Of a DNA stretch of 64,000 bases, positions 3 through 64,000 are shown piece by piece. The position numbers were made by a program, and so were the translations under genes. The stretch is taken from positions 9,183 to 73,182 of IMG/VR virus record IMGVR_UViG_3300035659_001663. One strand, 5' to 3'. The DNA comes from a virus. The notes below the pieces were generated by a model. It saw only the letters and a list, made by a program, of their open reading frames with translations. It made no database searches and had not been told where the DNA came from. Every line of letters begins with the position of its first letter. Position 1 is the first letter of the stretch.

Positions 3-314
3 AACCAATTCACAGAAGATCACATTCTTATAAAAGCATCTGTTATCATTGTTAGACTGAGAGCTTTACAACTAAGCAAGAATAAAGGGTTACCTATAAA
101 GATACATAGTAGGTATCTACCAATCTTCGATACTTATATTCAAATCGGCAATAAAGTTGCTACAGAATTACGAAAATGGTTGTTACAGAAGATCAAGCAG
201 GCGCAAACATCTGGTACTGACTATAATTTAACTGCCGGTGACCTTTTCTCATACTTTTCAATCGTGTCAGATAGACGATTGAAGACTAAGTCCCTCGAAT
301 TACTTCTCCGTTGA
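3..314 (+). CDS. 3' part of a hypothetical protein (starts before the window)
   Basis: Open frame from base 3 (NQFTEDHILIKAS...KSLELLLR) to TGA at 312-314; not in the ORF track because no start is in the window. Confidence 0.5.
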   Translation, partial: NQFTEDHILIKASVIIVRLRALQLSKNKGLPIKIHSRYLPIFDTYIQIGNKVATELRKWLLQKIKQAQTSGTDYNLTAGDLFSYFSIVSDRRLKTKSLELLLR

Positions 315-8796: not shown

Positions 8797-9732
8797 ATGG
8801 CTAATAAAATTTATCTAACACAGCGTACTAATAGGCATGTAGTAAAGAGATTAGATTCAACAGCTACGCCTGCAACATATGATTCAGCTATTTTTGGTAC
8901 GTGGGGAATACCGGGATCAACAAGTAGTACATTGAATTTTCCATGGGGCGTGACTAGAGATTCAAGTGGTAGTATTTATGTATGTGACACAGAGAATAAG
9001 CGGATTGTCAAATTGGATTCTAGTTTAGCGTATTTGACATCTTATGATACATCAGCAACAGTTGGCGTACCATATTCAATATTCTATGAACTTGCAACTA
9101 ACAATATTTATGTTGTTGGTGTAGAATTGATTTATGGCGCAGCAGTTAGAATTGAGCGATTGACGACATCATTCGTACAGACATTACTTAGTAGTAATTT
9201 GGGTGTGATTAAAGACTTGTCATTTAAGCCTGTTGGCATTTGTAGAGGTGAAGCTGGAAAGATTTGGGTAGTTGGCGCTGATCTTGATATTTTTGAGACA
9301 ATAGAAAGTGGATCTTTTTCACCGTTTATCACAAGATCAATTTATCGTGAGATTACAACATATCCTGAACTGTTTACTACTACTCGATATAATGGTATAG
9401 TTCATCATTCAAATGGTAGTCTTTATGTTACTAATGGCAGGAAGATAATTCGGGCATTGATATCTATTTCACCGGCGCCATTTGTAAACGTTGGAGATTC
9501 TGATTTCGTGTCAAAGACTATTTATGGGCTTAAAGAGGGTGTTGGCGGATCATTGTTAGTGTATTGTGCTGATTCTAGTACAATTTATAATCCAGTTCGA
9601 GGCAAGCATAATCAGAAGATTATGCGATTTGATGATGACCTGAATTTTGTTGATGATGTTTATATCGATAGTGGCAGTGCTATAACGACAGATGCTTATG
9701 AAATAATGGATTTTGTTGAAGCTACTGTTTAA
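8797..9732 (+). CDS. NHL-repeat/beta-propeller protein, paralog 2
   Basis: LNFPWGVTRDSSGSIYVCDTENKRIVKLD; colinear with paralog 1. Confidence 0.8.
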   Translation: MANKIYLTQRTNRHVVKRLDSTATPATYDSAIFGTWGIPGSTSSTLNFPWGVTRDSSGSIYVCDTENKRIVKLDSSLAYLTSYDTSATVGVPYSIFYELATNNIYVVGVELIYGAAVRIERLTTSFVQTLLSSNLGVIKDLSFKPVGICRGEAGKIWVVGADLDIFETIESGSFSPFITRSIYREITTYPELFTTTRYNGIVHHSNGSLYVTNGRKIIRALISISPAPFVNVGDSDFVSKTIYGLKEGVGGSLLVYCADSSTIYNPVRGKHNQKIMRFDDDLNFVDDVYIDSGSAITTDAYEIMDFVEATV

Positions 9733-42418: not shown

Positions 42419-44161
42419 ATGTTCACAAAACATGGAGCAGTTTTTGCTATAACTGGATCCGATAGAATTAAGACTGCTAGCGACTGGTCTGATGTTGTAA
42501 ATAAGACATCAACAGCCGAAGGCATTGTCATAAACAAAAATATGGAACCCGGTAATGCACAAAAAATAGTATGCCAAATAGATATCAATAAATACATCTA
42601 TATACATACTACAATTATGGCATCCGTTGATCTGGAACCAGAATCAGACTATTATATTACAAGAGCTACTGAAAAATATATCAACACTAACGGTGATGCT
42701 TGGCCTCGTGACATACTACTTAAAGACTACCGAACGTTTGTCGATAATGGCATCGTCTATGTTGAACACGATCAAAGTCCTGAGCATGCAAAAGGTAAAG
42801 TGCTTGACGCAATTGCTCGTGACATGGGTGACACAATTCTTGTAGATCTGTTATTCTGTGTCGATAAACGACATTCTGATTTAGTACATAACATTGAGAC
42901 AGGATTAGCGAATGCAGTTTCAATGGGATGCACGACAAAATACACTATATGTTCTATTTGTGGAAACGTTGCACATGATGAAAAAGAATATTGCAATCAT
43001 GTAAAGAATCAAAAGAATCAAATGGTCAAATGTGCTGACGGTCAGTATAGAAAAGCATGTGAAGTTTGCTTTGAAAATACATTCTATGACTGCTCAATCG
43101 TTGCAAATCCTGCATTTGCAGGGGCTGTTTTTAGGAAATTAGTCGCAGCTGATAAAGTTTCAATGCAGATGCTATCTAACATGCTATGTAGGAAAATTAG
43201 CTCTTCAGAATTCCAAAATGAAGTATCGAAATTTGATATTATGTCAAAATTTGCTTCTGTAGATACAGATAAGAACCATCCAATGGAAAGAGCAGCAGAT
43301 GAACAAAATTCAAAAGACTATGCACCTGATGAAGAAGGTCGGTATAGTGATATTCCTTATAATGATCCTCATAACACTTTACCAGCTTTTGATGAACAGC
43401 AGGCTGAGAGTGTGGTGGATGCTGGAAAGAGCAAAAAGAAAACTGCAAACGTTGCAAAGTGCAGCGACTATGGCTCGTTAGTCATATTGAATGACCAATA
43501 CAATGTGCCGCCACGTGATAGAGTCGCTAAGACTATTTTTAACTTCATAAGTAAAAACACTGTCGGTCGTCTTGTCGGTCGTGAAGCAAACACTTGCGCG
43601 ATATATTTTAACAAATTCGGTATGATTAGAAACATTCCTTCAGAAATGGTCGCACAATATGTAATGAGTGCTCCAGAAATTACTAAGAAAGCTAAAAAAG
43701 TTAGTGATGAAGAATTGTCAATACAAAGAAAAGGTACTTATTTACCTACTAATACTAGATTTCAAATCTTAAAAGTAACTGACGATGATGTCGAAGTTAG
43801 ATGGCTTGACGGCGAAAAGATGGGACAAAAAGAAATTCTACCAAAGAAAGATTGCAAGAGCGATGCAATCAAATGGGCCAGTGCTGATAAAATTGCTTCA
43901 TTTGATGCGACATGGAATGGCAAACATTACCAAGTTAAAAAAGCTGAATGGAATGAGAAAGTCGCAAATGTACTTGATCAATTCGAGACTCATATTGACA
44001 ATGTACAACATGACATAACTTGCATATCACCGCTTGCTAATGGTAAGAAGTATGCAAAGTCATTTAAGATTAGAACTAAAATTGCTAGCACTAATTTCAA
44101 ATTTGATGCTGTTGTGAATAATGATGATCTGCACATCGATGTAAATGCCACAAATTGGTGA
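42419..44161 (+). CDS. Prohead (capsid maturation) protease with Zn-finger insert
   Basis: YVEHD..KGKVLDA, AVSMGC (catalytic Ser), CSICGN..CNH, FYDCSIVANPAF; HK97/assemblin-type pattern and synteny. Confidence 0.8.
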   Translation: MFTKHGAVFAITGSDRIKTASDWSDVVNKTSTAEGIVINKNMEPGNAQKIVCQIDINKYIYIHTTIMASVDLEPESDYYITRATEKYINTNGDAWPRDILLKDYRTFVDNGIVYVEHDQSPEHAKGKVLDAIARDMGDTILVDLLFCVDKRHSDLVHNIETGLANAVSMGCTTKYTICSICGNVAHDEKEYCNHVKNQKNQMVKCADGQYRKACEVCFENTFYDCSIVANPAFAGAVFRKLVAADKVSMQMLSNMLCRKISSSEFQNEVSKFDIMSKFASVDTDKNHPMERAADEQNSKDYAPDEEGRYSDIPYNDPHNTLPAFDEQQAESVVDAGKSKKKTANVAKCSDYGSLVILNDQYNVPPRDRVAKTIFNFISKNTVGRLVGREANTCAIYFNKFGMIRNIPSEMVAQYVMSAPEITKKAKKVSDEELSIQRKGTYLPTNTRFQILKVTDDDVEVRWLDGEKMGQKEILPKKDCKSDAIKWASADKIASFDATWNGKHYQVKKAEWNEKVANVLDQFETHIDNVQHDITCISPLANGKKYAKSFKIRTKIASTNFKFDAVVNNDDLHIDVNATNW

Positions 44162-44370
44162 TGGTCCCTATAAGCTAGTCTGCTACATTAGATTCAATCA
44201 ATTAAGACATATTCAATGATTGTTGGTGATCACGACATACAGCTATTTATGTGTGTCATTGACAATTTCAGATGTCTTAATTTTAGATTAGATATTGTTG
44301 CTAGAAGGTAAAAGTAACTTTGCTTGACACCAAAGATGCCGATATACATGATCAACTAAGGAGGATTGCG

Positions 44371-46221
44371 ATGGACAAGTGGACTGCAAAGGTACATGTT
44401 TCAGGAACTCGCATTCAGCTTCTCAAGAACGGTAGTGTAACTAAGGTCATCAAAGCTAGCACTGAAACTTTCAAGCCGATCGAAGCTAAGGCATTTGCTG
44501 AGAACTTGGTTAATACTATCAATGCAAAACAAGCGAAGCAGATGACAGATCCTGATGCAGCACCTGCTATTGATACAAAGGGAGAAGAACAGGCGAAGGC
44601 TTTGAAGGCTCTTGGTCAAGATGCAAAAGGCATCTCTGTCAAAGAAGCTTCGGCTATTACTGAAGAAAATAAGTCATTGAAGAAGAAGGTTGCACGGCTC
44701 GAAAAGGAAGCAACAATTGAGAGAAAAGCACGTCGTGGACTTGCAATTGCTAAGACGATGGTCCAACAGAAGAAGATTGCAAACGATGAATCTGCTATTA
44801 AAGCAGAAGTCATGAAGATCGTTGCGATGTCGAATGATGAAATCGGCCTGCTCGAAAAGAAAGTTGCAGGAGCTCCTCTTTACAACTCTGCTGATGAAGC
44901 TGCTACTGCTGGACGACGTTATGCTCGTATGGCAAGACTGCACAGACAAGCTGCTGAAGATGCTGAGCTCGCAGAGAATACAGATCTTGCTGATGATGAA
45001 GATAAACAGGCTGCTAAGTACGAGACTCTGTCTAAAGAAGCTGCTTGCGAAGCTGAAAAGTGCTACGCACAGATGGATGCTGCGAAGGTCGATTCTACGA
45101 AGCCTGACGATGCAGTGAATCAGGTCAAAGACGAGGCTAAGGGCGTCGACGCGCAGGGTAAGAAGACAGCTTCTGATGATAAGGATGCTGATGATGTTGA
45201 TGGTGACAAAGATGAAGAAGAAGAATTCATAGACGATGAAAAGGTAGCATCTGATGATGACGACGAAGATGATGTTGAGGAAGAAGAAGACGAAGACTTT
45301 GAGATTGAAGCAGCTGCAGCTATTTACCGGAAGATAGCTTCTGATCATACTGCTAAGTCTGAAGAATTCAAGAAGGCAGGAAAAGAAACTGAAGCTGCGA
45401 CAGAACTCGAAGTTGCGAAAGAAGCTGCTGAACTTGCTGACGACATTGAGAGTGATGAAGATGAGGATGAAGAAGATCTAAGCAAGGAAGCTGCTGCAAT
45501 CTATCGCAAGATCGCAGCTGAACATCGTAAGAAGGCAGACGAACTTGAAGCTGAAGGCAAGACACCAGAAGCTGATGTAGAAGATGAAATTGCTGACGAA
45601 TCTGAACAACTCGCTGCAAGTGTTGAATCTTCATTGGCGAAGAAAGCTGATGACGATGACTCTGACAGTTCAGACGATGATGCGAAAGCTCTTAAGGGCG
45701 ACCCGATGAAAATGGAAACAGAAGGCAAGGTCGCAGAAGATGAAGGCTGCAAGAAAGTATCAGATGATGATGCGAAGAAACCCGCTCCTGAAGTTATGCC
45801 TGAAGACACTGCTGCTGTTGCAGACACTACTGATGAAGTAACAGACAAAGAAGCCAAGAAGACACCAGCTACTACTGATGAAGATGACCCCTTGGCAGCA
45901 CTGTTAACAGACGACGAAGCTAAAGCTGCAAGCGCTGATGAAGATGAATCAACTGAAGGCGATGATGCTACAATGCCTTCTGATGATGAAATTGATGCAG
46001 CTGTTGCAGGAGATTCAGATGAAGATGAAGTGGCGCCAACTGAAGAAGAGGTCGATGCAGGAGATTCTAAAGAAGCTACAACTTCAAAGGGATCCAAAAA
46101 GATCGCCAATGAAGGCCATAGCAAACAGGCATCTTATGACAGAATCGAACAGAATCAGTATGCATCAGATCCTCAAGTACGCGAGCTCGAAAGTCTCTGG
46201 CGCCCAGAAGAAAATGCATAA
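44371..46221 (+). CDS. Capsid scaffold protein (highly acidic, repetitive)
   Basis: AAGGAGG RBS before ATG 44371; coiled coil then D/E-rich; AAAIYRKIA repeat x2; lies before the capsid genes. Confidence 0.75.
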   Translation: MDKWTAKVHVSGTRIQLLKNGSVTKVIKASTETFKPIEAKAFAENLVNTINAKQAKQMTDPDAAPAIDTKGEEQAKALKALGQDAKGISVKEASAITEENKSLKKKVARLEKEATIERKARRGLAIAKTMVQQKKIANDESAIKAEVMKIVAMSNDEIGLLEKKVAGAPLYNSADEAATAGRRYARMARLHRQAAEDAELAENTDLADDEDKQAAKYETLSKEAACEAEKCYAQMDAAKVDSTKPDDAVNQVKDEAKGVDAQGKKTASDDKDADDVDGDKDEEEEFIDDEKVASDDDDEDDVEEEEDEDFEIEAAAAIYRKIASDHTAKSEEFKKAGKETEAATELEVAKEAAELADDIESDEDEDEEDLSKEAAAIYRKIAAEHRKKADELEAEGKTPEADVEDEIADESEQLAASVESSLAKKADDDDSDSSDDDAKALKGDPMKMETEGKVAEDEGCKKVSDDDAKKPAPEVMPEDTAAVADTTDEVTDKEAKKTPATTDEDDPLAALLTDDEAKAASADEDESTEGDDATMPSDDEIDAAVAGDSDEDEVAPTEEEVDAGDSKEATTSKGSKKIANEGHSKQASYDRIEQNQYASDPQVRELESLWRPEENA

Positions 46222-46254
46222 ACGTAACTCAACAATCACTCGGAGGTTCTTCAC

Positions 46255-46752
46255 ATGCTTATTATCAAATACCCTGGCAACAGGAACACGCTCTACAGCT
46301 TGAATGCGACGGGTTTCACCCGCCCCAATACAGCTGCTGAAGCAGGACGCACTCTCGGTCGCATCCCGGCCAATGCACCTGCAGGCGCTCTCGGCGGAAT
46401 GGCAGCGATGATGAGTGGCAGCTATGAAGCCAACATCTGCGTGAACGACAAACCGGTCGGATTCTTCTTGAATGATGCAGCAGGCTCGGCATATGAAAAT
46501 ACGCCAACTGTTGCTTCTGGCAAGCTCACGGTCATGACCGGTCAAGGCTCATACGAGACTGACATCTATGAGACAGTCAAGGAAGCCGGCGGCGCGCTTG
46601 ACACTGCATGGACAGCTTCTCTCGGTCTCCCGCTGTATGTTTCAAACTTCGGCCTCCTCACGACCGAAAGCACTGGTTCGATCATCGTCGGCTATGTGAC
46701 AAAGGCACCGGCAACTGACAACCCGATGCTTGGTTTCAATACGACAATCTAA
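46255..46752 (+). CDS. Capsid decoration/cement protein
   Basis: 165 aa directly before the major capsid gene; PVGFFLNDA, ASGKLTV..GQG.YETD.YE, LYVS..GLLT; strongly biased codons. Confidence 0.75.
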   Translation: MLIIKYPGNRNTLYSLNATGFTRPNTAAEAGRTLGRIPANAPAGALGGMAAMMSGSYEANICVNDKPVGFFLNDAAGSAYENTPTVASGKLTVMTGQGSYETDIYETVKEAGGALDTAWTASLGLPLYVSNFGLLTTESTGSIIVGYVTKAPATDNPMLGFNTTI

Positions 46753-46819
46753 GTAGCTAGCTGCAATTGCTAATGCAAAAAGAAATTGAACGATCAACAA
46801 TCTTTAAGGAGTCGAAAAA

Positions 46820-47692
46820 ATGAAACTTACACCGGCCCAAAGAGAAGCAGTTGTTAACAAGCTTCTCCAGACTGCTGAAGGCAAGATGAAGCTTGCTGCT
46901 TCGATGCAGAACCCGTTGCGCGAAAGGCTTGACTACGAAGGCGTATTTCGCCGGGCTATCGTGGTGGATCCGCTCCCTCAGGGCGCACTTCCCTACTACG
47001 ATAAGGACATCAACGTCCCTGCTATCGTAATCTCTGAAGAAGGCAAGACACCGGAAACGATCGTCAAGGGAAAGCGTATCCTGATTCCCCTGTTCGAACT
47101 CGGATCGAACCCGAAGATTCCGTTCACACAGGTCAAGGAACGCCGTTACAATCTCATTGACCGTGCACAAGACAAGGCCAAACAGGAAATCCAGGCTGCT
47201 GAAGACGAGCTCGGATTCTCTGCTTTCGACGTTGCAATTGCACAGGTTGACCCGATCACTGGCGTCCCCTTCAATGCTACAATCGGTGCAGCTGGCTCGC
47301 TCGACCGTGACGCACTTGCTGACGGCTTTGCCGAAATTGAGAAACATGACCTTCGTGTTGCACGCATGTTCATGAATGCACGTGACTACAGCGACATCCG
47401 TAAGTGGGGCCGGGACCAACTGGACCCGATCACACAGGAGAGCTTGCTGAACACGGGCCTCATGGGAATGATCTGGGGAGCAGAAATCATCGTTAGCCGT
47501 ATCGTTCCGATCGGCACGGTCTATGTCTGCACGGAAGAGAAACACCTCGGAATCATGCCGCAGCGTATCGACATCACGGTACTTCCTGCTGACGACCCCG
47601 ATAGCAGATTGGTCGGCTGGTCAATTTTCGAACAAATTGGAATAGGTGTCTGGAACCCGCGCGGAGTGGGCTCGATCTTGATAACCAGGTAA
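46820..47692 (+). CDS. Major capsid protein (HK97 fold)
   Basis: KLAASMQNPLRERLDYEGV.R..IVVD.LPQGALPYYDKD, FMNARDYSDIR, GMIWGAEIIVS; synteny, optimised codons and strong terminator. Confidence 0.92.
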   Translation: MKLTPAQREAVVNKLLQTAEGKMKLAASMQNPLRERLDYEGVFRRAIVVDPLPQGALPYYDKDINVPAIVISEEGKTPETIVKGKRILIPLFELGSNPKIPFTQVKERRYNLIDRAQDKAKQEIQAAEDELGFSAFDVAIAQVDPITGVPFNATIGAAGSLDRDALADGFAEIEKHDLRVARMFMNARDYSDIRKWGRDQLDPITQESLLNTGLMGMIWGAEIIVSRIVPIGTVYVCTEEKHLGIMPQRIDITVLPADDPDSRLVGWSIFEQIGIGVWNPRGVGSILITR

Positions 47693-47730
47693 GTAAGTAG
47701 TCGAGCAAATTAAACTGTCAGTCAGTTTAG

Positions 47731-47763
47731 ATAGCAGCCTTTCAAAAAGGCTGCTATTTTTTT
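47731..47763 (+). terminator. Rho-independent terminator after the major capsid gene
   Basis: ATAGCAGCCTTT-loop-AAAGGCTGCTAT then T run. Confidence 0.9.
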
Positions 47764-47839
47764 GTCTAAGTGCTCTTCTTCTTAATTTAATCGTGATTAG
47801 ATACCTCTCTCTCATAAACTCTTTGCTGTTTTCATTACC

Positions 47840-47878
47840 AATGATCCTGATACTCGCTTGGTTGGTTGGACTATTTTT
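47840..47878 (+). repeat. Diverged copy of a major-capsid-gene segment (47591..47629)
   Basis: Translates NDPDTRLVGWTIF versus capsid DDPDSRLVGWSIF. Confidence 0.85.
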
Positions 47879-47966
47879 GTCATATAATCATAATTATTTT
47901 ATTTTTATTGTAAATCATCGTAAAAAGATTATATATTATAATCATAAGATTAAAAAAGGAGGAAAC

Positions 47967-49436
47967 ATGCAATGTCCTGTATGCAATTCTAATGTCAATG
48001 ATATGGCTAGACATTTTGTATCAAAGTTTAGACTTGTAAATGACGAAGATGGGATTAAGCATTTACAATACATTAAGGAAGAGAAAAAACAAATAACTGA
48101 TTATGTTAATTCATTTTTTGAGACAAATTTGACATTGAGACAAGCTAGAGATAAAGTTAATGAAAAGTATATTAATCTAACATTCAAATCATTAAGAATA
48201 ATTTCAAAAATTTGGATTAGAACGTTTGGCAAAGAAGAGTATGATAAAAGAGTAAAGCGATTAAACAGTGGAAAATCTAAAAAAATGTGGCTCACTAGAG
48301 ATAAAAGTGCTATTAAACATTTGTATGAGTTTAGAATTCAAAGTGCAAAGGATAGAACTGCTTTAGCTATAGAAAATACGAATAAAATATTAAGCAATAG
48401 AGTCAATGCTATAAAATTTGTAGATAATGTTAATGAAAACATTGAAATTAAAGATCATTTATCTAGTGCTATTCAATGTCGATTATGTGGTAATTTTTTT
48501 AGAGCATTAGGTTTTCATTGTATGAATGTTCATAGTATTACAAGCATGGGATACAAAATATTATTTCCTAACGAACCATTAGTATGTCAAGAATCGATTG
48601 ATAGTCGGTCTAAAAAATTGATTTCTCAAGGATTAATGCGAAAAATTAGATTTTTTGATGAATCTATTAATATAGAGAAAGAAGTCGAAATAGCTCAATA
48701 TAGAAAAAAAATGTTTAGATTAGTTAGAGGTAGAGACATTTGTTGCCAAGAATGTGATAAAATAGATAGTAATGTTGATATTCATCATATAGTACCACAT
48801 CGATTATTTTCTAGATATGACTTTGAAATGCATGATCCTGATAATTTAATATTATTGTGTGATCAATGTCATGCTATTTATGGTCAAGAGCTTGATCAAA
48901 TTATTATTGAAATATTTGCACGAATTATTCAAGTCATGCATCCTTTTACTTATAAGTATGTTATTGCCAAGTTGAAATTTGAAGAAAAGTTAATATTCAA
49001 AAGAAAAGTCGGTGCTCCTAAGTTGTATAACGTGACAGCTAATGATGTCGATAAGGCAAAAGTTGATGGAAAAGTTATGATTTCAAAAGCTATAGAGTTG
49101 ATGCCAAATGTGCCAAAACGGCATATAGTTAAAGCTTGTAGAGATAATAATATGACGTTCATAAATCCTGAATGTTTGACTAAGAATTTGAAAACAAAGA
49201 TATGTCCTGTGTGTGGTTGGAGTGGGTCATTTAAGTTTTCAAAGCATGTGAAAACAAATGACGATAAGCATCAATCATTTTTGAGAGAGTTAGAAAGATT
49301 GTATATTAATGAGAAGTTAGGTTGTGATAAAATAGCTGAAGTTTATAGTGAATATAATTTTACACGTGAGATTGTTGAAGCGATTTTGAAAGATGCAGGT
49401 ATATATTATAAAATATTACAAGAGGAGGTTGCATGA
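47967..49436 (+). CDS. HNH endonuclease with multiple Zn fingers (putative homing endonuclease)
   Basis: AAGGAGG RBS before ATG 47967; CQEC...DIHHIVP...DNLILLCDQCH HNH core; CPVC, CRLC..H...H and CPVC..H fingers. Confidence 0.85.
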   Translation: MQCPVCNSNVNDMARHFVSKFRLVNDEDGIKHLQYIKEEKKQITDYVNSFFETNLTLRQARDKVNEKYINLTFKSLRIISKIWIRTFGKEEYDKRVKRLNSGKSKKMWLTRDKSAIKHLYEFRIQSAKDRTALAIENTNKILSNRVNAIKFVDNVNENIEIKDHLSSAIQCRLCGNFFRALGFHCMNVHSITSMGYKILFPNEPLVCQESIDSRSKKLISQGLMRKIRFFDESINIEKEVEIAQYRKKMFRLVRGRDICCQECDKIDSNVDIHHIVPHRLFSRYDFEMHDPDNLILLCDQCHAIYGQELDQIIIEIFARIIQVMHPFTYKYVIAKLKFEEKLIFKRKVGAPKLYNVTANDVDKAKVDGKVMISKAIELMPNVPKRHIVKACRDNNMTFINPECLTKNLKTKICPVCGWSGSFKFSKHVKTNDDKHQSFLRELERLYINEKLGCDKIAEVYSEYNFTREIVEAILKDAGIYYKILQEEVA

Positions 49437-49993
49437 GTGAGTTGATTCGGTGCCAAATTGAAGGCTGTACGCATGAAGCAAAAGCATTAAGAGGTCATGT
49501 GGTTAGTGTTCACGGAATGACAACAGATGAGTATAAGCAAAAGTATGGTAAGTATAGTCTTGTGTCAGAGGATTATTTGTTAAAATTGCGAGCGTCAGGT
49601 AATAAAGCGTCAGAGACAGTTGATAATAGAGTGTATAGGCATAAGTGTAGAAATGATGATTGTGATGTGATTATTGATGGAAAGGCATTAGTTTGTGATG
49701 TTTGTAAAGCTAAGCAGCAGATAAGATTATTAGAGTTGCAAAAGTTGAAGTTTAAAGATATGGTTGAGAATCAAGATTTTGTTGTTTGCAAAATTTGCGG
49801 GTGGTGTGATACTAGAATATCTGGTCATGTATTGAGTGTTCACAATATGGATAAACGACAGTATAGAAGTTTGTATGGTGATTCACTGTTAGTATGTAGT
49901 GACATTGCAAATAGAACAGCATTTAGAGGGATTCATTCTATTGATACTCGTAGGCAAATGGCAATAAGTCACATGAAACGTCAGTCTATATAG
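49433..49993 (+). CDS. Multi-Zn-finger DNA-binding protein with NUMOD3-like tail, no nuclease motif seen
   Basis: CQIEGC..H...H.MT..EY, CKICG..H...H.M...Y, HSIDTRRQM. Confidence 0.75.
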   Translation: MSELIRCQIEGCTHEAKALRGHVVSVHGMTTDEYKQKYGKYSLVSEDYLLKLRASGNKASETVDNRVYRHKCRNDDCDVIIDGKALVCDVCKAKQQIRLLELQKLKFKDMVENQDFVVCKICGWCDTRISGHVLSVHNMDKRQYRSLYGDSLLVCSDIANRTAFRGIHSIDTRRQMAISHMKRQSI

Positions 49994-50005
49994 GGAGTAG
50001 ATCAA

Positions 50006-50518
50006 ATGATTGTTGAAGCAGATACTAGAATATATAATTTTGCAAAGTTAATGGGAAATGAAGATTATGAGATTAATTTTGTCGAGCTTGATAATGGTGC
50101 GTTCGGGATACAATATCCTTATAAGAAATTGATAGAGATTAATTTATGCCTGTTAGATGACGATATTGAAGATAGAATACTAGCTGTACTGTCTCATGAA
50201 ATTGGTCACTGTAAAACGTATGCTAGAAGTCAGTATTTACGTGAATTTCATGCGTCTATGTGGGCTATAAGACGAAATGAAGAAGTAAGAAAAGATAATG
50301 ATGAATATGATTTTCGATCGATTAGGAATAGGTTGATTTTGACATTTTTGTTATGGGAGAATGATTCACCTGCAAGATATAGAAAATCTGCTTATTTTGC
50401 AAGACAATGCGGTGTTTTAAGTTATTTAGAGTATTGTTTGGTATCTAATACAGAATGTAATATTGATGAATTAAGTAGAATATATGAACACCATGTGAAC
50501 ATTAAAGTTTCTGTATAA
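50006..50518 (+). CDS. Zincin-like metallopeptidase (HExxH)
   Basis: VLSHEIGH followed by REFHA. Confidence 0.7.
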   Translation: MIVEADTRIYNFAKLMGNEDYEINFVELDNGAFGIQYPYKKLIEINLCLLDDDIEDRILAVLSHEIGHCKTYARSQYLREFHASMWAIRRNEEVRKDNDEYDFRSIRNRLILTFLLWENDSPARYRKSAYFARQCGVLSYLEYCLVSNTECNIDELSRIYEHHVNIKVSV

Positions 50519-50535
50519 AAATAAGGAGTGATATT

Positions 50536-50892
50536 ATGTCTTGTAGAGTCGAGTTGATGCAAGGTAGGACAGATCGTTTTGTTATTGTAGACAAGAATGG
50601 TAGGGTTGTTAATGATGCTCAGGGTTATGGTTATACAACAAAGCAAAAGGCTATTAGGGCTATGTGGTATCATTGTGGAGGAGGTAAACAGAAGATTGAT
50701 GCAATTAAGAATGAGGCTAAGAAGTTTTGGGATGATCATAAAGATGCTGGTAAGTATTTGCAAGAGTTGTATGAGATGAATGTTAAAGAAATATGTACGG
50801 GAGAAGTTACTGATAACGATATTATTAGAGATGTTTGCGAGAAGTATTTGATTGATAGTATTCCAAGGGCATATATTGAGTATTTGCCGTAG
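50536..50892 (+). CDS. Hypothetical protein
   Basis: AAGGAG RBS; clear ORF. Confidence 0.7.
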   Translation: MSCRVELMQGRTDRFVIVDKNGRVVNDAQGYGYTTKQKAIRAMWYHCGGGKQKIDAIKNEAKKFWDDHKDAGKYLQELYEMNVKEICTGEVTDNDIIRDVCEKYLIDSIPRAYIEYLP

Positions 50893-50910
50893 ATGACGAT
50901 TTTGTATGAA

Positions 50911-50940
50911 AGCAGCTATCAAAAGGCTGCTATTTTTCTG
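50911..50940 (+). terminator. Rho-independent terminator, near-duplicate of 47733..47764
   Basis: AGCAGC-TATCAAAAG-GCTGCT-ATTTTT. Confidence 0.8.
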
Positions 50941-50982
50941 TGAATTAGAGGATGTAAGTGGTTAATGATACTAAATGAATAG

Positions 50983-51708
50983 TTGCTTTATATTGAGGTA
51001 AAATACATGGAGAAAAGAAGTCATTCATTGACGAATCGTGAGATAGATGTAGATGGTTTAGTGGATAAGTATGAGGAGTTCGATAATAGTGATTTTGGAA
51101 ATGAGTTTGTTCCGTTAGAGAAATCAGATTATGAGATAAGGGCATCACAAAACAACACTCGTGAGGAGGAAAGTATGAAGGATACGCGTAAGGCAAGTTA
51201 TGTGGGTGAATTGACATCTGGTTATGATGCAAAGGTTCAGAATGATTATGAGGCTGGTAAGGGTGATAAGGGTCAGATTGGTAAGGGGCATGAGGAGGAA
51301 GTTGCTGCTAAGAATAATTGGGAGGCTGATAAGAGAGATGCTGTTGGTCGTGCAGCTGCTTCGAGTTTGTTACGTAAGGCAGCGTTGAAGTTGACTAAGA
51401 TGGCAGATGCTATGGAGGAAGAGAAGTTTGATGATGATGACGATGTTGAAGAGAGTGTTAAGGATTTGGAGAATGTAGATAGTGATGATGAGGGTGGAGA
51501 TATGGAGGAGATCGCTACAGCAGTTCTTGATGAGACTAAAGTAGCGGCCAAGAAGGTTGCAGTGCATCCGTTAGATCATGATCCTAAGGGAGATGATCCG
51601 GCAGCTGATATGTCACCGCAGACAGGTGATGAGGAGTGGATTGATATAGGTCCTGGTGAGTTTGATGATCCGCGTGATGAAGTTGGAAGAGCTGCTGAGG
51701 GAAAGTAA
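50983..51708 (+). CDS. Acidic putative head internal protein (start uncertain; strong RBS at 51175)
   Basis: D.RD.VGRAA repeated twice; RKA, KMA, KVA motifs. Confidence 0.6.
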   Translation: MLYIEVKYMEKRSHSLTNREIDVDGLVDKYEEFDNSDFGNEFVPLEKSDYEIRASQNNTREEESMKDTRKASYVGELTSGYDAKVQNDYEAGKGDKGQIGKGHEEEVAAKNNWEADKRDAVGRAAASSLLRKAALKLTKMADAMEEEKFDDDDDVEESVKDLENVDSDDEGGDMEEIATAVLDETKVAAKKVAVHPLDHDPKGDDPAADMSPQTGDEEWIDIGPGEFDDPRDEVGRAAEGK

Positions 51709-51736
51709 GGGTAGTTGTAGATTAAACTAAATTTAT

Positions 51737-52267
51737 ATGGATGGAGGTAGGTGTATGAAGTATTTGACGCAGGTTAAGTTTCGGTTAGTGGATAATGGTA
51801 AGTATTTGAATGAGGGTGATGTTTATGATCCTATGGATAGTGCGTATGAGAGTAGTTCGAGGTCATTAGCAGCAGCATTGAAGGCTGGATGGTTGAAGAT
51901 GATAAGTGATGAAGATGCTGCTAAGATTCAGGCAGAGAAAGTTAAGAAGTTGATGGCTGTTGAGCCTGTTGAGATTAAGAAGGTTCATGTAGATCCGAAT
52001 CAGACGAAGGCAATAAGTAGGAAGATAAATAGTGATGTTGAGGTTGCCACGCCGAATGTGGGTTTGGGTGAGGTGACTGATGAAGATATGGCTGATGAGG
52101 TGATACATCAGGAGCCGATAATAGCTGCAATGGAGAGCAGGAGACAGGCTAAGAGGCAGTCACAGGTACAGCAGCCGAGAGAAGTTGAGGTTACGGCTGA
52201 GAGTATAAAGAGTGAGATAAAGCGTAAGGTTAGGAAAAGTTTGAGGATCGATAAACGAAAGAAGTGA
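51737..52267 (+). CDS. Hypothetical protein (late region)
   Basis: GGAGG RBS before MKYLTQ; clear ORF. Confidence 0.65.
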   Translation: MDGGRCMKYLTQVKFRLVDNGKYLNEGDVYDPMDSAYESSSRSLAAALKAGWLKMISDEDAAKIQAEKVKKLMAVEPVEIKKVHVDPNQTKAISRKINSDVEVATPNVGLGEVTDEDMADEVIHQEPIIAAMESRRQAKRQSQVQQPREVEVTAESIKSEIKRKVRKSLRIDKRKK

Positions 52268-52271
52268 ATAA

Positions 52272-52739
52272 ATGATTAGCAATAAGATCCAAGTCGTTTA
52301 TAGATTGCCTAGCCGTGTAACATTGATGTGGCCGTCGAGGCCAAATGCAGGCAATGCAACGTTGCCGACAAGTTATAATATTTATTGGGATACGTCGACG
52401 ATTGGATTGTTTGCATCATTGTTGGGGTCAGTAGAGAATCAGGGATCACCCGGGTATAATGGTAATAGATCGTATTTTGGTAAGGTTGTGTTTCATATAG
52501 TGCCTGAGATGATACCCGGGTGGAATAATGATATTATGAATTATGTGAGGTTGAGGGCAGTGATTGGTGGTGTGTTGCAGCCTGCAGAAGATATCGTGCA
52601 GATACCGCAGTATACTACTGGTGGAATGAGGTTGACGTATCCTGAGTTGAGTACGACAGCAATGGTTGGGTATGACGCAGCCGAGAATAGGTTTATTCCG
52701 GTTGCTGTTGATACAAATGGTAAAGTTAAAGTTGTTTAA
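52272..52739 (+). CDS. Putative virion structural protein (FN3-like)
   Basis: VTLMW...SYNIYW...YVRLRAV pattern. Confidence 0.55.
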   Translation: MISNKIQVVYRLPSRVTLMWPSRPNAGNATLPTSYNIYWDTSTIGLFASLLGSVENQGSPGYNGNRSYFGKVVFHIVPEMIPGWNNDIMNYVRLRAVIGGVLQPAEDIVQIPQYTTGGMRLTYPELSTTAMVGYDAAENRFIPVAVDTNGKVKVV

Positions 52740-52767
52740 TCAATCAACCGTATAAGGAGGAAGGGTT

Positions 52768-53184
52768 ATGAAGATTACGAATTTGACCGCCAATGTGTTG
52801 GAGTTCAATGACCTTGGTAGTTATATCAAGGGTGTGTCGCCGATTGCTCGTAGTATTCGGTTGGATCCTGCAGGATCAACTGGTGCGTCGATGTATTTGG
52901 TTGAGACTGGTGAAGTATTGCTTAGCGCACAGTCTGGCGATATTCATCGTTTTGCTGCTGCGACAAAGATCACAGTGAATGATGTGACTGGTGTTGTTGG
53001 AGCTGGTGGTAGCGTGACATTGACACATAATTTCAGATTTCAGCCGAATGTTAATGTTGTTATTACTGCTTCTGGTGTTCAAGCAGCTGCTTCTGATTTG
53101 ACAATCACTCACAATGCAAGTTTCACAGCAGTGACGATCTTGTCGGCTGCTGGAGCTGCATCATTCACAATTCGTTTGAGCTAA
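52768..53184 (+). CDS. Putative virion structural protein
   Basis: AAGGAGG RBS; small-residue beta-rich, VTLTHN motif. Confidence 0.6.
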   Translation: MKITNLTANVLEFNDLGSYIKGVSPIARSIRLDPAGSTGASMYLVETGEVLLSAQSGDIHRFAAATKITVNDVTGVVGAGGSVTLTHNFRFQPNVNVVITASGVQAAASDLTITHNASFTAVTILSAAGAASFTIRLS

Positions 53185-53196
53185 GTGTTGAATAGG

Positions 53197-53230
53197 AAGA
53201 GAGTTCCTGTAAAAGGGAACTCTCTTTTTT
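53197..53230 (+). terminator. Rho-independent terminator
   Basis: AAGAGAGTTCC-loop-GGAACTCTCTT then T run. Confidence 0.85.
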
Positions 53231-53260
53231 GTTCGATTAAAACAGATTAAAGGAGAGAAT

Positions 53261-53842
53261 ATGTTGAATATAATAATGAGATTTATTCAAAAGATGATAT
53301 TGAGTGATAATACTATTAAAGAGTACATCATTAGTATTTGTTTGAATAAAGATCAAGAATTACGAGATGAATTTACTGCTAAGATTTCATTTTTGGCTGA
53401 TGATAATGAGATTTATCAGAAAATTGAATCACTTGAAAATGATTTACTTGAAAAGTGCAATATTTTAGTTGATAGTGTTTATTCAGATGAAGAATTCAAA
53501 TCGTTGAAAGCATCAATAGTAGAATTTAAGTTAGCTCTTGACAATTGTTATAGTGCATTAGATTCTAAGGCCGATCAAGAGTTAACATTACAATTGACAG
53601 CTAATAATATCAAGTTATCGAAAGCAGTACTTGACATAAAGCGTCAAGTTGAAAATACACAGCCTGTACAAATTCAAGATTCAACAGCGATTGAAAGTTT
53701 AGTTAAGAAAACTAGAGTAGACACAGCAACAGTTATTACAAAAGTAAAAGAGAGTGTGTCTGAGTTAGATATTAAGTTGGATGCGTTTATAGATACTGTC
53801 AGTGAGAAGATTGCAGAGATAAAGCAGAAGAATAGAAGATAG
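53261..53842 (+). CDS. Coiled-coil hypothetical protein
   Basis: AAGGAG RBS; heptad-rich. Confidence 0.65.
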   Translation: MLNIIMRFIQKMILSDNTIKEYIISICLNKDQELRDEFTAKISFLADDNEIYQKIESLENDLLEKCNILVDSVYSDEEFKSLKASIVEFKLALDNCYSALDSKADQELTLQLTANNIKLSKAVLDIKRQVENTQPVQIQDSTAIESLVKKTRVDTATVITKVKESVSELDIKLDAFIDTVSEKIAEIKQKNRR

Positions 53843-53854
53843 AAATTAAGATAG

Positions 53855-54382
53855 ATGGAGAAAAACATGTCTGAGAATATGACTATTGTTACTCCTGATT
53901 TGTATTTTGCTGCATATTTGAAAGCTAAGAGCTGTCAGATTGTTAATATACAAAAAGAAGGTACGAAAACTATATTTACGTTTGATGTTAATGATTCTCA
54001 TTTGACAGTGCCAGAGTTGAAGCATGGATATTTCAATAATGATGATGATTTTAAGTACACTGTTTGTGCGATAGATTTTGCTGATGCTATTCGAGCATTG
54101 AAGACATTATGTCATGTTGAAGATAGTGATAAGATAACTACTCCAGATTTGTATTTTGCTGCATATTTGAAGACGAAGAGGTGTTCAGTAGAGACTGTTA
54201 GACAACGAGATTCAAAGACAGTGTTTTTATTTGAAGTTGGTCCGTCAGGATTGTCTGCATTAGAGTTGAAATTGGGATATTTTAATAGTATACAGGACAA
54301 GAGATGCACAGTGAACGCATCAGCATATACTGATGCAGTGCGATCATTGAAAACGATGTGTCATATAACAGGTGATCTGTAG
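53855..54382 (+). CDS. Protein with two tandem TPDLYFAAYLK domains (DUF5659-like)
   Basis: Internal duplication of about 85 aa, also visible in the DNA. Confidence 0.7.
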   Translation: MEKNMSENMTIVTPDLYFAAYLKAKSCQIVNIQKEGTKTIFTFDVNDSHLTVPELKHGYFNNDDDFKYTVCAIDFADAIRALKTLCHVEDSDKITTPDLYFAAYLKTKRCSVETVRQRDSKTVFLFEVGPSGLSALELKLGYFNSIQDKRCTVNASAYTDAVRSLKTMCHITGDL

Positions 54383-60753: not shown

Positions 60754-63700
60754 ATGCCTACCGGTGACATTGGTGTACAGATTGGACTTACCGGAGTACA
60801 AGGTTTAACGGGCGTCCAAGGCGAAACTGGTGTACAGGGAGTAACTGGTTTGCTTGGAGCTACAGGTTTGCAGGGTGGTCAAGGAGTTATTGGTAATCCT
60901 GGACTGCGAGGTGTAACTGGTGCAAGAGGTGAGATGGGTGACCAGGGAATGACTGGCACTCAAGGTTTGACGGGAATTGATGGACTTCGAGGAATGACTG
61001 GTGGTCAAGGAGCTACTGGTCTTCAGGGCGGTCAAGGTTTGACGGGAGTTGATGGAGCTACAGGAGTACGAGGTTTTACTGGACTTGCAGGTATTCAGGG
61101 AATTACTGGAGTTCAGGGACTAACGGGAGTACAAGGCGCAAGTGGTATTCAAGGACCGATAGGGTCTACGGGACTAAAAGGTGATAAAGGTTTAACGGGC
61201 GTTCAGGGATCTACAGGAATTCAAGGATTTGTTGGACAACAGGGTATTACCGGTTTAAGAGGGCAGCAAGGAGCAACTGGTTTTGTTGGTGCTAAAGGAG
61301 ATACTGGATCGCAAGGTTTGACGGGTTTACAAGGTAGTACTGGAACGCAAGGACCTTTAGGTTCTACAGGAATAAGAGGAACTACTGGTTTTCAAGGACC
61401 CATGGGTGCGCAAGGTAACACCGGGTTACAAGGTTCGCAAGGTTTGACGGGAATAAATGGTGCAGTTGGATCGCAAGGCGTGACTGGTATACAGGGAGAT
61501 CAGGGAGTTCAAGGCACTACTGGTCTTAATGGTGTTACTGGTGCTCAAGGTCGAATTGGAGCTACAGGAACACAGGGCGAGACAGGATTGCTGGGATCGC
61601 AAGGTAATACTGGATTACAAGGCTCAATTGGACCGAGAGGATTGACTGGTTTACAAGGTGGGACTGGTTTACAAGGTAGTCAAGGTAGTACTGGAATACA
61701 AGGAATACAGGGTAGTTCGGGTGTACGAGGAACTACTGGGTTACAAGGCACAGTTGGTAATCTAGGAACTACCGGTGTGCAAGGAAATCAGGGTATTACG
61801 GGTCTTAGAGGAATAACAGGCGCTTTAGGATCGACGGGATCTCAGGGTGAAACTGGTTTACAAGGATTGCAAGGTAGTACAGGATTACAGGGATCTACTG
61901 GATTGCAAGGTCAAACAGGATTCATTGGAGTTACTGGTATACAAGGTTTGCAAGGTAATGATGGAGCACAGGGTATTACAGGATTAAGAGGAGCACAAGG
62001 ATCAACGGGTATTCAAGGTTTGACTGGTGTGCAAGGTAATATTGGTGATCAAGGAACGACTGGATTACGAGGAGCAGCAGGTAGTACTGGTATACAAGGT
62101 AATACTGGTGTACAAGGTATTGTTGGTGATCAAGGAACAACTGGATTGCGAGGTGCTGCTGGCAATACAGGAGTTCAAGGTGTTACTGGATTGCAAGGAT
62201 TACAAGGTAGTACTGGATTAGGTGTTACAGGACCTGCAGGTGCACCGCAAGGAGAAACAGGAGTTCAAGGTACTACAGGTATTCGTGGTGAACGAGGTAG
62301 TACTGGATTGCAAGGGACAGGATCTACTGGTTTGCAAGGTGCGACAGGATTGATAGGTCCAAGAGGCTTTACAGGTGTTCAAGGTTTGCAAGGAACAACT
62401 GGTGCAGGTATACAAGGAACAACTGGATTACAGGGTGTTCAAGGGTCAACTGGTATTCAAGGGCAACAAGGTTCAACTGGTGCGGGTATACAAGGTGCTA
62501 CTGGATTGCAAGGTTCTCAAGGATTGACTGGAATTCAAGGTTTGGGTCTTACGGGATTACCAGGCGTTACAGGTGAACGTGGTGATCGAGGTTTTACAGG
62601 TGTTCAAGGAATGCAAGGAACTACTGGTGCTGGTATTCAGGGAGTGACAGGTGAACGAGGTGATAGAGGTTCTACTGGATTAAATGGCGCTATTGGATTA
62701 CAAGGCGCGACAGGTATAGGCGCGATTGGTGTTACTGGTTTAGTTGGATTAACAGGAAGTCAGGGTAATACTGGTGCTCAAGGAGTGACGGGTCTTAGTG
62801 TTCCTGGTTCAACAGGTTTGTTAGGTCATACAGGTATACAAGGCTTGACAGGTGCTCAAGGTTTGACAGGAGCAAGTGGTAATACTGGACTTCAAGGTGT
62901 GACTGGATTAGGTCCTACTGGACTTCAAGGTACAACTGGTGTTAAGGGTAATCCTGGAGAACAAGGTCCAACAGGATCAATTGGATTGACCGGAGCTTTG
63001 GGTAATACTGGTGCTCAAGGAAATACTGGTTTACAAGGCACACAAGGAGTAACTGGAGTTGGAGATACTGGTTTACAAGGTATCACTGGTGCTGTTGGTG
63101 TTACTGGCGCATTTGGAGGCCCTGCGGGTGAAACAGGTACGCAAGGTTTGACAGGAATTCAAGGTAATACTGGCCCGCAAGGTATAACTGGTATTCGTGG
63201 TGTTACTGGAATTCAAGGTGCAACAGGATTACAAGGATTGACAGGCTTTGGTGTAACTGGTGCACAAGGGTTGACTGGGTATGGCGTTACAGGTTTGGGA
63301 GTAACTGGATTACGGGGCGCAACTGGTCAGCAAGGATTTACTGGGCTTCAAGGATATGGTGTGACAGGTTTGAGTGGTGTTACTGGAGTGCAAGGAGTAA
63401 CAGGAGTTCAGGGATTAGGATTGACAGGACTTAACGGTGATACTGGTGTGCAAGGTGATACTGGTGCTCAAGGCGAAACTGGTATTCAAGGCGATATAGG
63501 TGTTGGTGCACAAGGAGATACTGGATTACAAGGCTTAGGTGAAACTGGTCTTCAGGGTATTACTGGTGTTCAGGGTGACACCGGTGTTCAAGGTGAAACA
63601 GGTGTTCAGGGAGATGTTGGTTTTCCAGGACCACAAGGAGTGACGGGATCGATAGGAATTCAGGGATTAACTGGAGTTCAAGGTTTGACAGGAGTCGAAG

Positions 63701-64000
63701 GACTTATTGGGCAAACTGGTATTATAGGCATTCAAGGTGATACTGGTATACAAGGTGACACCGGTGCACAGGGCAATACCGGTGTTCAAGGCATGCAAGG
63801 CGATACTGGTGTACAAGGTGTACAAGGTGATACTGGAATACAAGGCGATCAAGGCGTGACAGGTCTTGGAATGACTGGGCCAGTAGGATTGGGTGAGACC
63901 GGATTACAAGGCGTTACTGGAGTAGTTGGTGTTACAGGAGCTTTTGGTGGTCCTCCGGGAGAAACCGGTATTCAAGGTGACACTGGTATTCAAGGTGACA
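60754..64000 (+). CDS. Giant collagen-like (Gly-X-Y) protein, 3' end beyond the window
   Basis: ATG 60754 (MPTGDIGVQIGLTGVQGLTGVQGETG...); G-x-T/G-x-Q repeats in the same frame to the window end (>1080 aa). Confidence 0.92.
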   Translation, partial: MPTGDIGVQIGLTGVQGLTGVQGETGVQGVTGLLGATGLQGGQGVIGNPGLRGVTGARGEMGDQGMTGTQGLTGIDGLRGMTGGQGATGLQGGQGLTGVDGATGVRGFTGLAGIQGITGVQGLTGVQGASGIQGPIGSTGLKGDKGLTGVQGSTGIQGFVGQQGITGLRGQQGATGFVGAKGDTGSQGLTGLQGSTGTQGPLGSTGIRGTTGFQGPMGAQGNTGLQGSQGLTGINGAVGSQGVTGIQGDQGVQGTTGLNGVTGAQGRIGATGTQGETGLLGSQGNTGLQGSIGPRGLTGLQGGTGLQGSQGSTGIQGIQGSSGVRGTTGLQGTVGNLGTTGVQGNQGITGLRGITGALGSTGSQGETGLQGLQGSTGLQGSTGLQGQTGFIGVTGIQGLQGNDGAQGITGLRGAQGSTGIQGLTGVQGNIGDQGTTGLRGAAGSTGIQGNTGVQGIVGDQGTTGLRGAAGNTGVQGVTGLQGLQGSTGLGVTGPAGAPQGETGVQGTTGIRGERGSTGLQGTGSTGLQGATGLIGPRGFTGVQGLQGTTGAGIQGTTGLQGVQGSTGIQGQQGSTGAGIQGATGLQGSQGLTGIQGLGLTGLPGVTGERGDRGFTGVQGMQGTTGAGIQGVTGERGDRGSTGLNGAIGLQGATGIGAIGVTGLVGLTGSQGNTGAQGVTGLSVPGSTGLLGHTGIQGLTGAQGLTGASGNTGLQGVTGLGPTGLQGTTGVKGNPGEQGPTGSIGLTGALGNTGAQGNTGLQGTQGVTGVGDTGLQGITGAVGVTGAFGGPAGETGTQGLTGIQGNTGPQGITGIRGVTGIQGATGLQGLTGFGVTGAQGLTGYGVTGLGVTGLRGATGQQGFTGLQGYGVTGLSGVTGVQGVTGVQGLGLTGLNGDTGVQGDTGAQGETGIQGDIGVGAQGDTGLQGLGETGLQGITGVQGDTGVQGETGVQGDVGFPGPQGVTGSIGIQGLTGVQGLTGVEGLIGQTGIIGIQGDTGIQGDTGAQGNTGVQGMQGDTGVQGVQGDTGIQGDQGVTGLGMTGPVGLGETGLQGVTGVVGVTGAFGGPPGETGIQGDTGIQGD

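Follow-up and report, generated by a model that had tools for sequence, protein, structure and literature searches.

The DNA analysed is a stretch of 64,000 nucleotides (the window) from the IMG/VR virus record IMGVR_UViG_3300035659_001663, positions 9,183 to 73,182, and is part of a 73-kb fragment from a large phage. Between the major capsid protein gene and a gene for a free-standing HNH endonuclease, the window holds a short non-coding sequence, here called the snippet, that resembles an almost invariant part of the capsid gene. There is about an even chance that the snippet is a selected, cassette-borne mimic of the capsid target of the endonuclease, and that zinc-finger proteins of the cassette bind it much as I-TevI binds its operator. 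The case for a protein binding site is that the snippet is non-coding, preserves a coding target at its non-wobble bases, does so in either orientation and lies beside genes for DNA-binding nucleases. Observed directly are the copy itself, the way in which it is conserved, its association with cassettes and the hot spot in which these cassettes lie. Related loci are referred to by number (L001 and so on).

An earlier note on this DNA had described positions 47840-47878 as a mostly synonymous match to capsid positions 47591-47629, and this was borne out. The two segments are identical at 26 of 39 nt. Their translations (DDPDSRLVGWSIF in the capsid, NDPDTRLVGWTIF in the snippet) agree at 10 of 13 residues, with three conservative replacements. 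Nine of the 13 codons differ, six of them at the third base alone. The similarity reaches four codons further upstream, for a total of 17 codons (VLPADDPDSRLVGWSIF at 47579-47629 versus VFITNDPDTRLVGWTIF at 47828-47878). When the intergenic region 47693-47966 was compared in six frames with the whole capsid protein, the snippet gave the best ungapped BLOSUM62 score, 63, against a mean of 26.6 (standard deviation 3.2, maximum 37) for 300 dinucleotide-preserving shuffles of the region. The similarity is not due to chance. The snippet is located past the capsid stop codon (47692) and the terminator-like hairpin, within the about 200 nt of non-coding DNA that lead from the hairpin to the HNH gene. 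It ends 88 nt ahead of the HNH start codon; the spacing of about 90 nt given in the earlier note was thus correct, with the ATG at 47967 and not at 47968. Within 6 kb 3' of the window capsid gene no second capsid-like piece was found, and the snippet is the sole match with a score of at least 36. A direct repeat of 24 nt (D16, 47624-47647 versus 50310-50333, 20/24 identical) would extend the capsid sequence from exactly where the snippet similarity ends. It was rejected as a chance continuation, because it lies out of frame in an open reading frame (ORF) for a SprT-like protein, whose coding is conserved in L031, and because the similarity ends after 24 nt.

The same kind of sequence recurs in relatives. 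Capsid relatives were found at 19 viral-contig loci and 64 metagenome loci in all; 17 viral loci and about 50 metagenome loci have capsid homologues at 80-99% identity. The 6 kb 3' of each capsid gene were scanned with that genome's own capsid C-terminus as the query, for 52 non-redundant relatives whose sequence runs on for 250 nt or more past the capsid gene. A capsid-like snippet with a score of 40-71 (reversed-sequence null maximum 35) was present in 12 of the 52 loci. It is inverted (minus strand) in nine and direct (plus strand) in three, the latter being the clade of the window. The distance from the capsid stop codon is 66-272 nt in 11 of the 12, and all 12 snippets lie between the capsid terminator and the start codon of a nuclease gene. 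That gene is in each case of a zinc-finger nuclease type (Ros/MucR fingers, NUMOD3, HNH or Phage_endo_I-like): eight match the finger pattern, which misses some finger genes such as that of L051, and those of the window, L002 and L087 were recognised by Pfam or alignment. The L001 contig ends before the nuclease gene, and here the zinc-finger gene was observed only in the near-identical twin L031. A snippet occurs in none of the 33 loci that lack a zinc-finger motif. The snippets of L001, L030 and L031 read ...VFTTNDPDTRLMGWTIL... and that of L002 reads ...DSRLVGWTIF..., both between the terminator and the HNH start. Contigs from four sediment runs contained only the L001 type; 47763-47898 was skipped at the 80% likeness threshold and no new snippet allele was obtained.

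Two pairs of closely related hosts, L073/L090 (capsid 3' ends 94% identical) and L081/L087 (93%), carry different nuclease genes and different snippets, and the homology within each pair ends at the terminator or at the capsid stop codon. Since closely related hosts carry different cassettes with different snippets, the snippet is part of the cassette and not of the host genome.

The snippets of the window and L001 are orthologous, with a common spacer and junction. They differ at 15 of 51 nt, and these differences are distributed 3/1/11 over codon positions 1/2/3 (Fisher p = 1.9e-4; binomial 0.0018 for one phase). The adjoining spacer is 63% identical with gaps, compared to 54±3% for unrelated AT-rich sequence under the same scoring. 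Between the window and L002, 23 of 30 core positions are identical, and the downstream flank is at 0.60 versus 0.54±0.03 for shuffles. In a MAFFT alignment of eight intergenic regions of the inverted class, the conserved blocks are the snippet and the ribosome-binding site/ATG only. When each snippet was compared with its own capsid gene, third positions were at background level (3-4/11) and second positions were matched at 10-11/11, each in nine of the 12 loci. The consensus of the 12 copies, nCnGAnAnnnGnnTnATnGGnTGGnnnATnnTn, keeps the non-wobble bases. With third positions at background in nine of 12, the snippets were apparently not copied recently from the resident capsid gene, and the window snippet appears to be under codon-periodic constraint.

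The least conserved snippet codon is that for Ser of GWSIF, which is replaced by Thr in five copies, by Cys in three and by Leu in one. This residue is Ser in all capsid alleles seen, and none among them has Thr or Cys in its place. No capsid allele encoding the snippet peptide was found in a degenerate pattern scan of viral contigs, which gave eight stretches: the L001 and L002 snippets and six unrelated ones. One stretch, in L021, lies inside another ORF of a phage with 51-60% G+C.

The earlier note had interpreted the snippet as a scar of the old target allele, left by a homing event that replaced the capsid 3' end. The separate history of the capsid 3' end, with its divergence break at 47508 and its codon shift, fits the co-conversion that a homing event would bring about; the interpretation as a scar is not supported. 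The snippet shares 26/39 nt with its own capsid allele and 25-31/39 with those of 16 relatives. Over a 33-nt core, it shares 23 nt with its own allele, and 56 other alleles give a mean of 22.9 (maximum 27). The comparison of the 39-mer with related capsid alleles, a check named beforehand, revealed no exact match and no greater closeness to other alleles than to its own. The snippet also does not lie where a displaced 3' end would lie, as the true one of L074 is 3' of the endonuclease gene. Finally, it is part of the cassette and appears to be under codon-periodic constraint.

The region behind the capsid gene is occupied in various ways. The homology between the window and L032, an empty-site relative with 94% capsid identity, ends at 47694 and restarts at 50979. 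In L032 and in L006/L041 the cassette is absent, and the capsid gene is directly followed by the homologue of window gene 50983. In occupied loci the genes share Ros/MucR fingers and NUMOD3, and their nuclease domains vary: Phage_endo_I-like domains were identified in L036:6074-7144 and L003:7020-8087, HNH domains in L081:748-3150 and L074:6147-8552. The latter two genes also carry a C-terminal N6_N4 methylase-like part. In effect, this is domain shuffling among endonucleases that occupy one site. The capsid gene of L080 contains two group I introns without ORFs (L080:713-951 and L080:1277-1564; Rfam Intron_gpI, 88 and 105 bits). They are inserted at capsid codons 177/178 and 275/276, the second site being five codons 3' of the copied segment. 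In L074, a decaying plus-strand copy of capsid codons ~272-290 (L074:8554-8640, IGIGV...GVATITVSR, with an indel) begins at the stop codon of an 802-aa Ros/MucR-HNH-methylase-like ORF and looks like the displaced old capsid 3' end. An inverted SRLIGWSI copy is located ~230 nt past it, at about L074:8792-8815. The optional cassettes, the varied nuclease genes, the L080 introns and the displaced L074 end mark the conserved 3' part of the capsid gene, together with the gap that follows, as a hot spot for homing elements.

From these comparisons we infer the target, the binding and the regulation. The HNH enzyme would recognise and cut capsid codons ~254-277 in HNH-free relatives, reading mainly non-wobble bases. 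The L080 intron site and the L074 junction suggest codons 254-270 as the homing site, and homing endonucleases are tolerant of change at every wobble position (PMC3159444). In the repair that follows the cut, an HNH-carrying genome would serve as the template, and the cassette would be copied together with the capsid 3' end. A second recognition copy would be retained in the cassette, with a few non-wobble changes, of which Ser to Thr in GWSIF stands out. This copy may be bound by the endonuclease or its MucR-like partner without productive cleavage, and the binding would throttle endonuclease expression by promoter interference or by a block on read-through from the very strong capsid promoter. 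It is tentatively proposed, at somewhat less than an even chance, that the mimic keeps exactly the non-wobble bases read by the enzyme, is altered at the Ser and Arg codons, and is bound but left uncut, serving as a brake or as self-protection. As the window capsid gene has no intron, self-protection would have to come from sequence or regulation.

The I-TevI operator is a homing-site-like sequence 5' of the endonuclease ORF; the enzyme binds it no less well than the homing site, cuts it about 100-fold less and thereby limits its own expression (PMC2988022). The snippet, too, lies just 5' of an endonuclease gene, and it resembles the putative target with a few non-wobble changes. Unlike the operator, which overlaps a late promoter, the snippet misses the conserved promoter-like site at 47908-47937. 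I-TevI is an intron-encoded GIY-YIG enzyme, whereas the window enzyme is a free-standing HNH protein with Ros/MucR-type zinc fingers. The putative mimic differs further in being longer (~33-51 nt), recognisably coding-derived, codon-periodic in its conservation and found in both orientations. By analogy the snippet would work like the I-TevI operator; it is not a strict member, since the overlap with the conserved promoter-like site is missing.

Several observations weigh against this reading. The 3/1/11 periodicity statistic stems mainly from one orthologous pair, and the frame was picked after viewing the data. Detection across lineages is biased to copies that are still capsid-like. At least seven loci with a zinc-finger motif have no detectable snippet, and the copies of L053 and L090 are degenerate (Trp to Cys and Trp to stop); given these absences and degenerate copies, the element is either dispensable or decaying. 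The L036 copy matches its own capsid gene at 9/11 third positions, which indicates that new copies or gene conversion occur. In L031 the snippet persists despite a broken HNH gene, which this reading can accommodate only if binding is still achieved by the MucR-like protein or by the zinc-finger fragments that are left. A gap of 30 nt separates the snippet of the window from the best-conserved -35 hexamer, and the promoter-like hexamers with which it does overlap (TGGACT, TTGTCA) are weaker. Its place relative to promoter-like sequences, as judged by eye, varies among relatives: it is upstream of them in L015 and L087 and within the presumed 5' untranslated region in L081.

The main rival is a neutral relic, that is, a capsid fragment from illegitimate recombination or break repair that became attached as the ancestral cassette moved and has been hitch-hiking since, without function. 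This is judged unlikely, though far from negligible. The hot spot contains clear scars (codons ~272-290 after the 802-aa ORF in L074, the introns in L080), the window capsid 3' end appears exchanged, the L036 copy is recent, with 9/11 third positions as in its own capsid, and the snippet is absent from at least seven zinc-finger loci and degenerate in L053 and L090. A sequence without function is harder to reconcile with the codon periodicity of the substitutions between the window and L001 (3/1/11, p = 1.9e-4), in DNA that has no ORF, with second positions kept at 10-11/11 while third positions are randomised, or with a snippet that stays alike where the intergenic DNA around it cannot be aligned. 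The snippets furthermore share Thr or Cys for Ser, found in no capsid allele seen, and no simple repair route leads to an inverted copy at the same place in nine lineages. Improbable is a role of the snippet as a non-essential target copy where cassettes insert, or where rival endonucleases cut to displace the resident. Direct snippets do end at capsid codons 270-277, near the L080 intron site 275/276 and the L074 junction at ~272, and close hosts with different cassettes point to frequent cassette replacement. However, the inverted snippets of L015 and L053 cover both sides of the site, so that the gene is not inserted within these snippets. No matching right half was detected downstream of the window cassette in the 6 kb scanned 3' of the capsid gene, loci without an endonuclease have no snippet, and selection would be expected to remove a site that draws in rivals and not to conserve it.

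The earlier note had also suggested an operator or decoy, or else a small guide or antisense RNA. The operator or decoy agrees with the bound target mimic preferred here. An RNA from the snippet that pairs with capsid mRNA or DNA of the own phage or of competitors is very improbable. The best promoter-like match (47914-47887, minus strand, 10/12) reads leftward through the snippet, and in the inverted class a plus-strand transcript across the snippet would be complementary to the capsid mRNA; in L081 the snippet lies within the presumed 5' untranslated region. The window copy, however, is direct and the orientation varies between lineages; there are 13/39 mismatches with the own capsid gene, eight of the 13 being C·A and only one a possible G·U; most alleles would mismatch at every third base, making the helix unstable; the minus-strand -10 hexamer is changed in L001; and no Rfam family match was found in 44000-54000. 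Least probable of all is a translated micro-ORF encoding a short peptide that mimics the capsid protein. The capsid-like frame has the best ratio of synonymous to non-synonymous changes between the window and L001 (10 to 3), and some copies (L002, L015, L036, L069) have an ATG. Against translation, the frame has no ATG, GTG or TTG start and no Shine-Dalgarno sequence in the window or L001; the frames are unalignable 5' of the 17 codons; the peptide ends differ (VI*, GHIVITI*, GNVA*); and L090 has a stop and L053 Trp to Cys in the core, with orientation again varying. Read-through from the capsid gene into the snippet was also rejected: the two are in frame in the window but not in L001 or L002, and stops lie between them.

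Among known systems, the nearest precedents in the literature are the I-TevI operator and the free-standing F-CphI/psbA arrangement. F-CphI lies beside psbA in cyanophage S-PM2, and its target is the intron insertion site (PMC6083498); free-standing homing endonucleases beside their target gene include those of the T4 seg and mob genes (PMC2988022). As in these cases, the window has an optional nuclease gene between conserved genes that is thought to cut its neighbour in genomes without the nuclease, with co-conversion of the flanks. The likeness to F-CphI extends to L080, with a group I intron five codons from the copied segment. In the available portions of these two sources no second, diverged target copy beside the endonuclease is mentioned; the window has a putative one. 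A literature search, not exhaustive and excluding supplementary files, found no capsid- or coding-derived, codon-periodic target copy beside an endonuclease gene.

In the mitochondrial atp6 of Allomyces, an endonuclease-linked replacement of the 3' end of the gene has reportedly left the displaced end as a pseudogene. L074 fits this pattern, with a complete capsid gene, an endonuclease ORF and decaying capsid codons ~272-290. The window is like it in that the capsid 3' end appears exchanged, and unlike it in that the snippet corresponds to the part left of the putative site, lies 5' of the endonuclease gene and is without signs of neutral decay. A diverged direct repeat of a structural gene 3' end in nearby non-coding DNA also recalls the template and variable repeats of diversity-generating retroelements. 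Such a repeat pair was rejected, as only 2/13 differences are at adenines of the copy and the repeat measures 39-51 nt. No match to a reverse transcriptase was found among the 10 ORFs scanned between 42419 and 52267.

To our knowledge, the one case in which autoregulation through a homing-site look-alike has so far been demonstrated is that of I-TevI in T4. Should the snippet be a target mimic that is bound, such autoregulation would be recurrent among free-standing endonucleases of large environmental phages, and the recognition code of an endonuclease could be read straight from sequence comparison. Targets might then be predicted cheaply by looking, beside a conserved gene, for a non-coding copy of it that shows codon periodicity. 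As no more than a scar, the snippet would be an ordinary homing footprint. The locus displays an intense contest by selfish elements for the most conserved capsid stretch. This contest is seen in free-standing nucleases whose catalytic domains have been swapped, in group I introns and in gene ends that were displaced, and it bears on phage competition and on the mosaic evolution of structural genes.

The features of the locus are summarised in Table 1.

Table 1. Features of the window around the capsid gene and the optional cassette
Feature	Position	Strand	Basis
Major capsid protein gene, 290 aa	46820..47692	+	tblastn; homologues in relatives
Possible co-conversion tract at the capsid 3' end, more divergent and with a shift in codon usage	47508..47692	+	window versus L001
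Segment copied in the snippet, capsid codons 254-270 (VLPADDPDSRLVGWSIF), presumed endonuclease recognition region	47579..47629	+	
Optional cassette: snippet, HNH gene, MucR-like gene, SprT-like ORF 50006-50518, ORF 50536-50892	47695..50978	+	break in homology with L032
Intrinsic-terminator-like hairpin and T-run after capsid gene	47729..47766 (hairpin 47729-47759)	+	14-bp stem, 3-nt loop
Capsid-like snippet (putative pseudo-target), VFITNDPDTRLVGWTIF; core 47840-47878	47828..47878	+	similarity to capsid; orthologues in L001/L030/L031 and L002
Promoter-like TTGTAA-N18-TATATT 5' of HNH gene	47908..47937	+	9/12 consensus matches
Free-standing HNH endonuclease gene, 489 aa, Cys/His zinc-finger modules	47967..49436	+	Pfam HNH PF01844
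Ros/MucR-type zinc-finger protein gene, 186 aa, start overlapping HNH stop	49433..49993	+	Pfam ROS_MUCR

The capsid ORF has 46.7% identity with the 'major head protein' gp27 of Bacillus phage G (497 kb) and 50.5% identity with a protein of an uncultured 485-kb phage (tblastn). The match to Pfam Phage_capsid is weak, at 19.3 bits under the cut-off of 24.2. The motif at codons 254-270 is almost invariant across all capsid relatives. The genome has a G+C content of about 35%, and the scaffold and capsid genes reach 44-56% (capsid gene 0.46-0.56). Structural-gene blocks at 44350-47700, 51100-53050 and 61000-64000 have 42-56%. The G+C content at third codon positions (GC3) of the capsid gene is 0.60 in the window and 0.30-0.42 in most relatives. 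The sequence of the terminator hairpin is the same in L001 and shows compensatory stem changes in L002. A group I intron with an embedded endonuclease was rejected for the window, as there was no ribozyme match and the capsid ORF is uninterrupted and aligns collinearly with those of relatives. In an Rfam search of 44000-54000 (E up to 1), Intron_gpI was absent and the only matches were three sub-threshold snoRNA-like ones, all in the scaffold gene; the same search detects the two introns of L080.

Between the window and L001, the capsid genes differ at 38 positions in the first 689 nt (5.5%) and at 29 in the last 184 nt (15.8%), with the best divergence break at 47508. The codons AGA/AGG/ATA/TTG make up 6/10 of the Arg/Ile/Leu codons in the last 33 codons and 4/63 in the first 257, which upholds the enrichment at the capsid end described in the earlier note. 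GC3 is unchanged there (0.64 versus 0.60), and the capsid 3' ends of L001 and the window both use AGA/AGG/ATA/TTG or TTA. The pattern fits a co-conversion of the capsid 3' end along with the cassette; relaxed codon selection at the gene end may also account for the shifted codon usage.

The cassette is 3.3 kb in size, AT-rich and situated between the capsid gene and the next conserved gene. G+C falls to 26-31% over 47800-49150, the HNH gene having 0.26-0.31 versus 0.46-0.56 for the capsid gene. The HNH domain (26.6 bits, cut-off 21.4) covers residues 260-306, with several Cys/His fingers besides, and PF01844 is also listed in precomputed Pfam data for the window protein and its 63% homologue P0002. 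The motif residues in the translation, CQEC...DIHHIVP...PDNLILLCDQCH, are all invariant in the L002 homologue; we take them to include the catalytic His...Asn...His and the flanking Cys pairs of the family. L002 has a 58%-identical HNH gene in the same position. The family is rare, with three proteins, that of the window included, in a search of 5.8 billion proteins. In viral contigs, a single-protein scan gave no relatives of the HNH gene, and an alignment-based scan gave only the contig of L002.

The Ros/MucR-type protein matches ROS_MUCR with 40.1 bits (cut-off 25.4) in two stretches and is 90% identical in L031; the SprT-like assignment of the ORF at 50006-50518 is weak. L031 has 99% capsid protein identity and the same architecture as the window. 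Its HNH orthologue (L031:1128-2094) is broken into ORFs of 160 aa and 167 aa, with the snippet retained. The deletion of 498 nt corresponds to window positions 48436-48933, which hold the second zinc finger and the HNH domain. Because the gene is optional between conserved genes, deviates in G+C and has a decayed copy in L031, the window HNH gene is, as far as these features indicate, a free-standing gene of homing-endonuclease type in an optional AT-rich cassette, in agreement with the earlier note. The HNH frame is open for 58 codons 5' of its ATG (47793-47966, very AT-rich), with an in-frame ATG at 47842 within the snippet. An N-terminal extension of the ORF was rejected, as it is not conserved in L001 or L002.

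The promoter-like block 5' of the HNH gene, a putative promoter, is conserved in L001 and can still be made out in L002. Of the sigma-70-like matches in 47500-48100, the best is on the minus strand (47914-47887, TTTACA-N16-TATGAT, 10/12) and aimed leftward through the snippet; its -35 is the reverse complement of the plus-strand TTGTAA, and its -10 hexamer is the one altered in L001. The fold of 47693-47990 has z = -3.3, with the terminator hairpin dominant.

Two further loci have unusual capsid genes. In L083 (on a contig shared with L019) a 1.25-kb insertion (L083:5553-6797) splits the capsid gene at about codon 190. An intein was rejected, as 66 in-frame stops occur across L083:5001-7103, nearly all within the insertion, which matches no Rfam family at E up to 0.1. 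L085 has a second short capsid-like ORF (L085:8838-9465), 3 kb 3' of the true capsid gene, and its C-terminal piece, DPEKDLVGWSIFENIGVAV, is nearer to window-type capsids than to the capsid of L085 itself.

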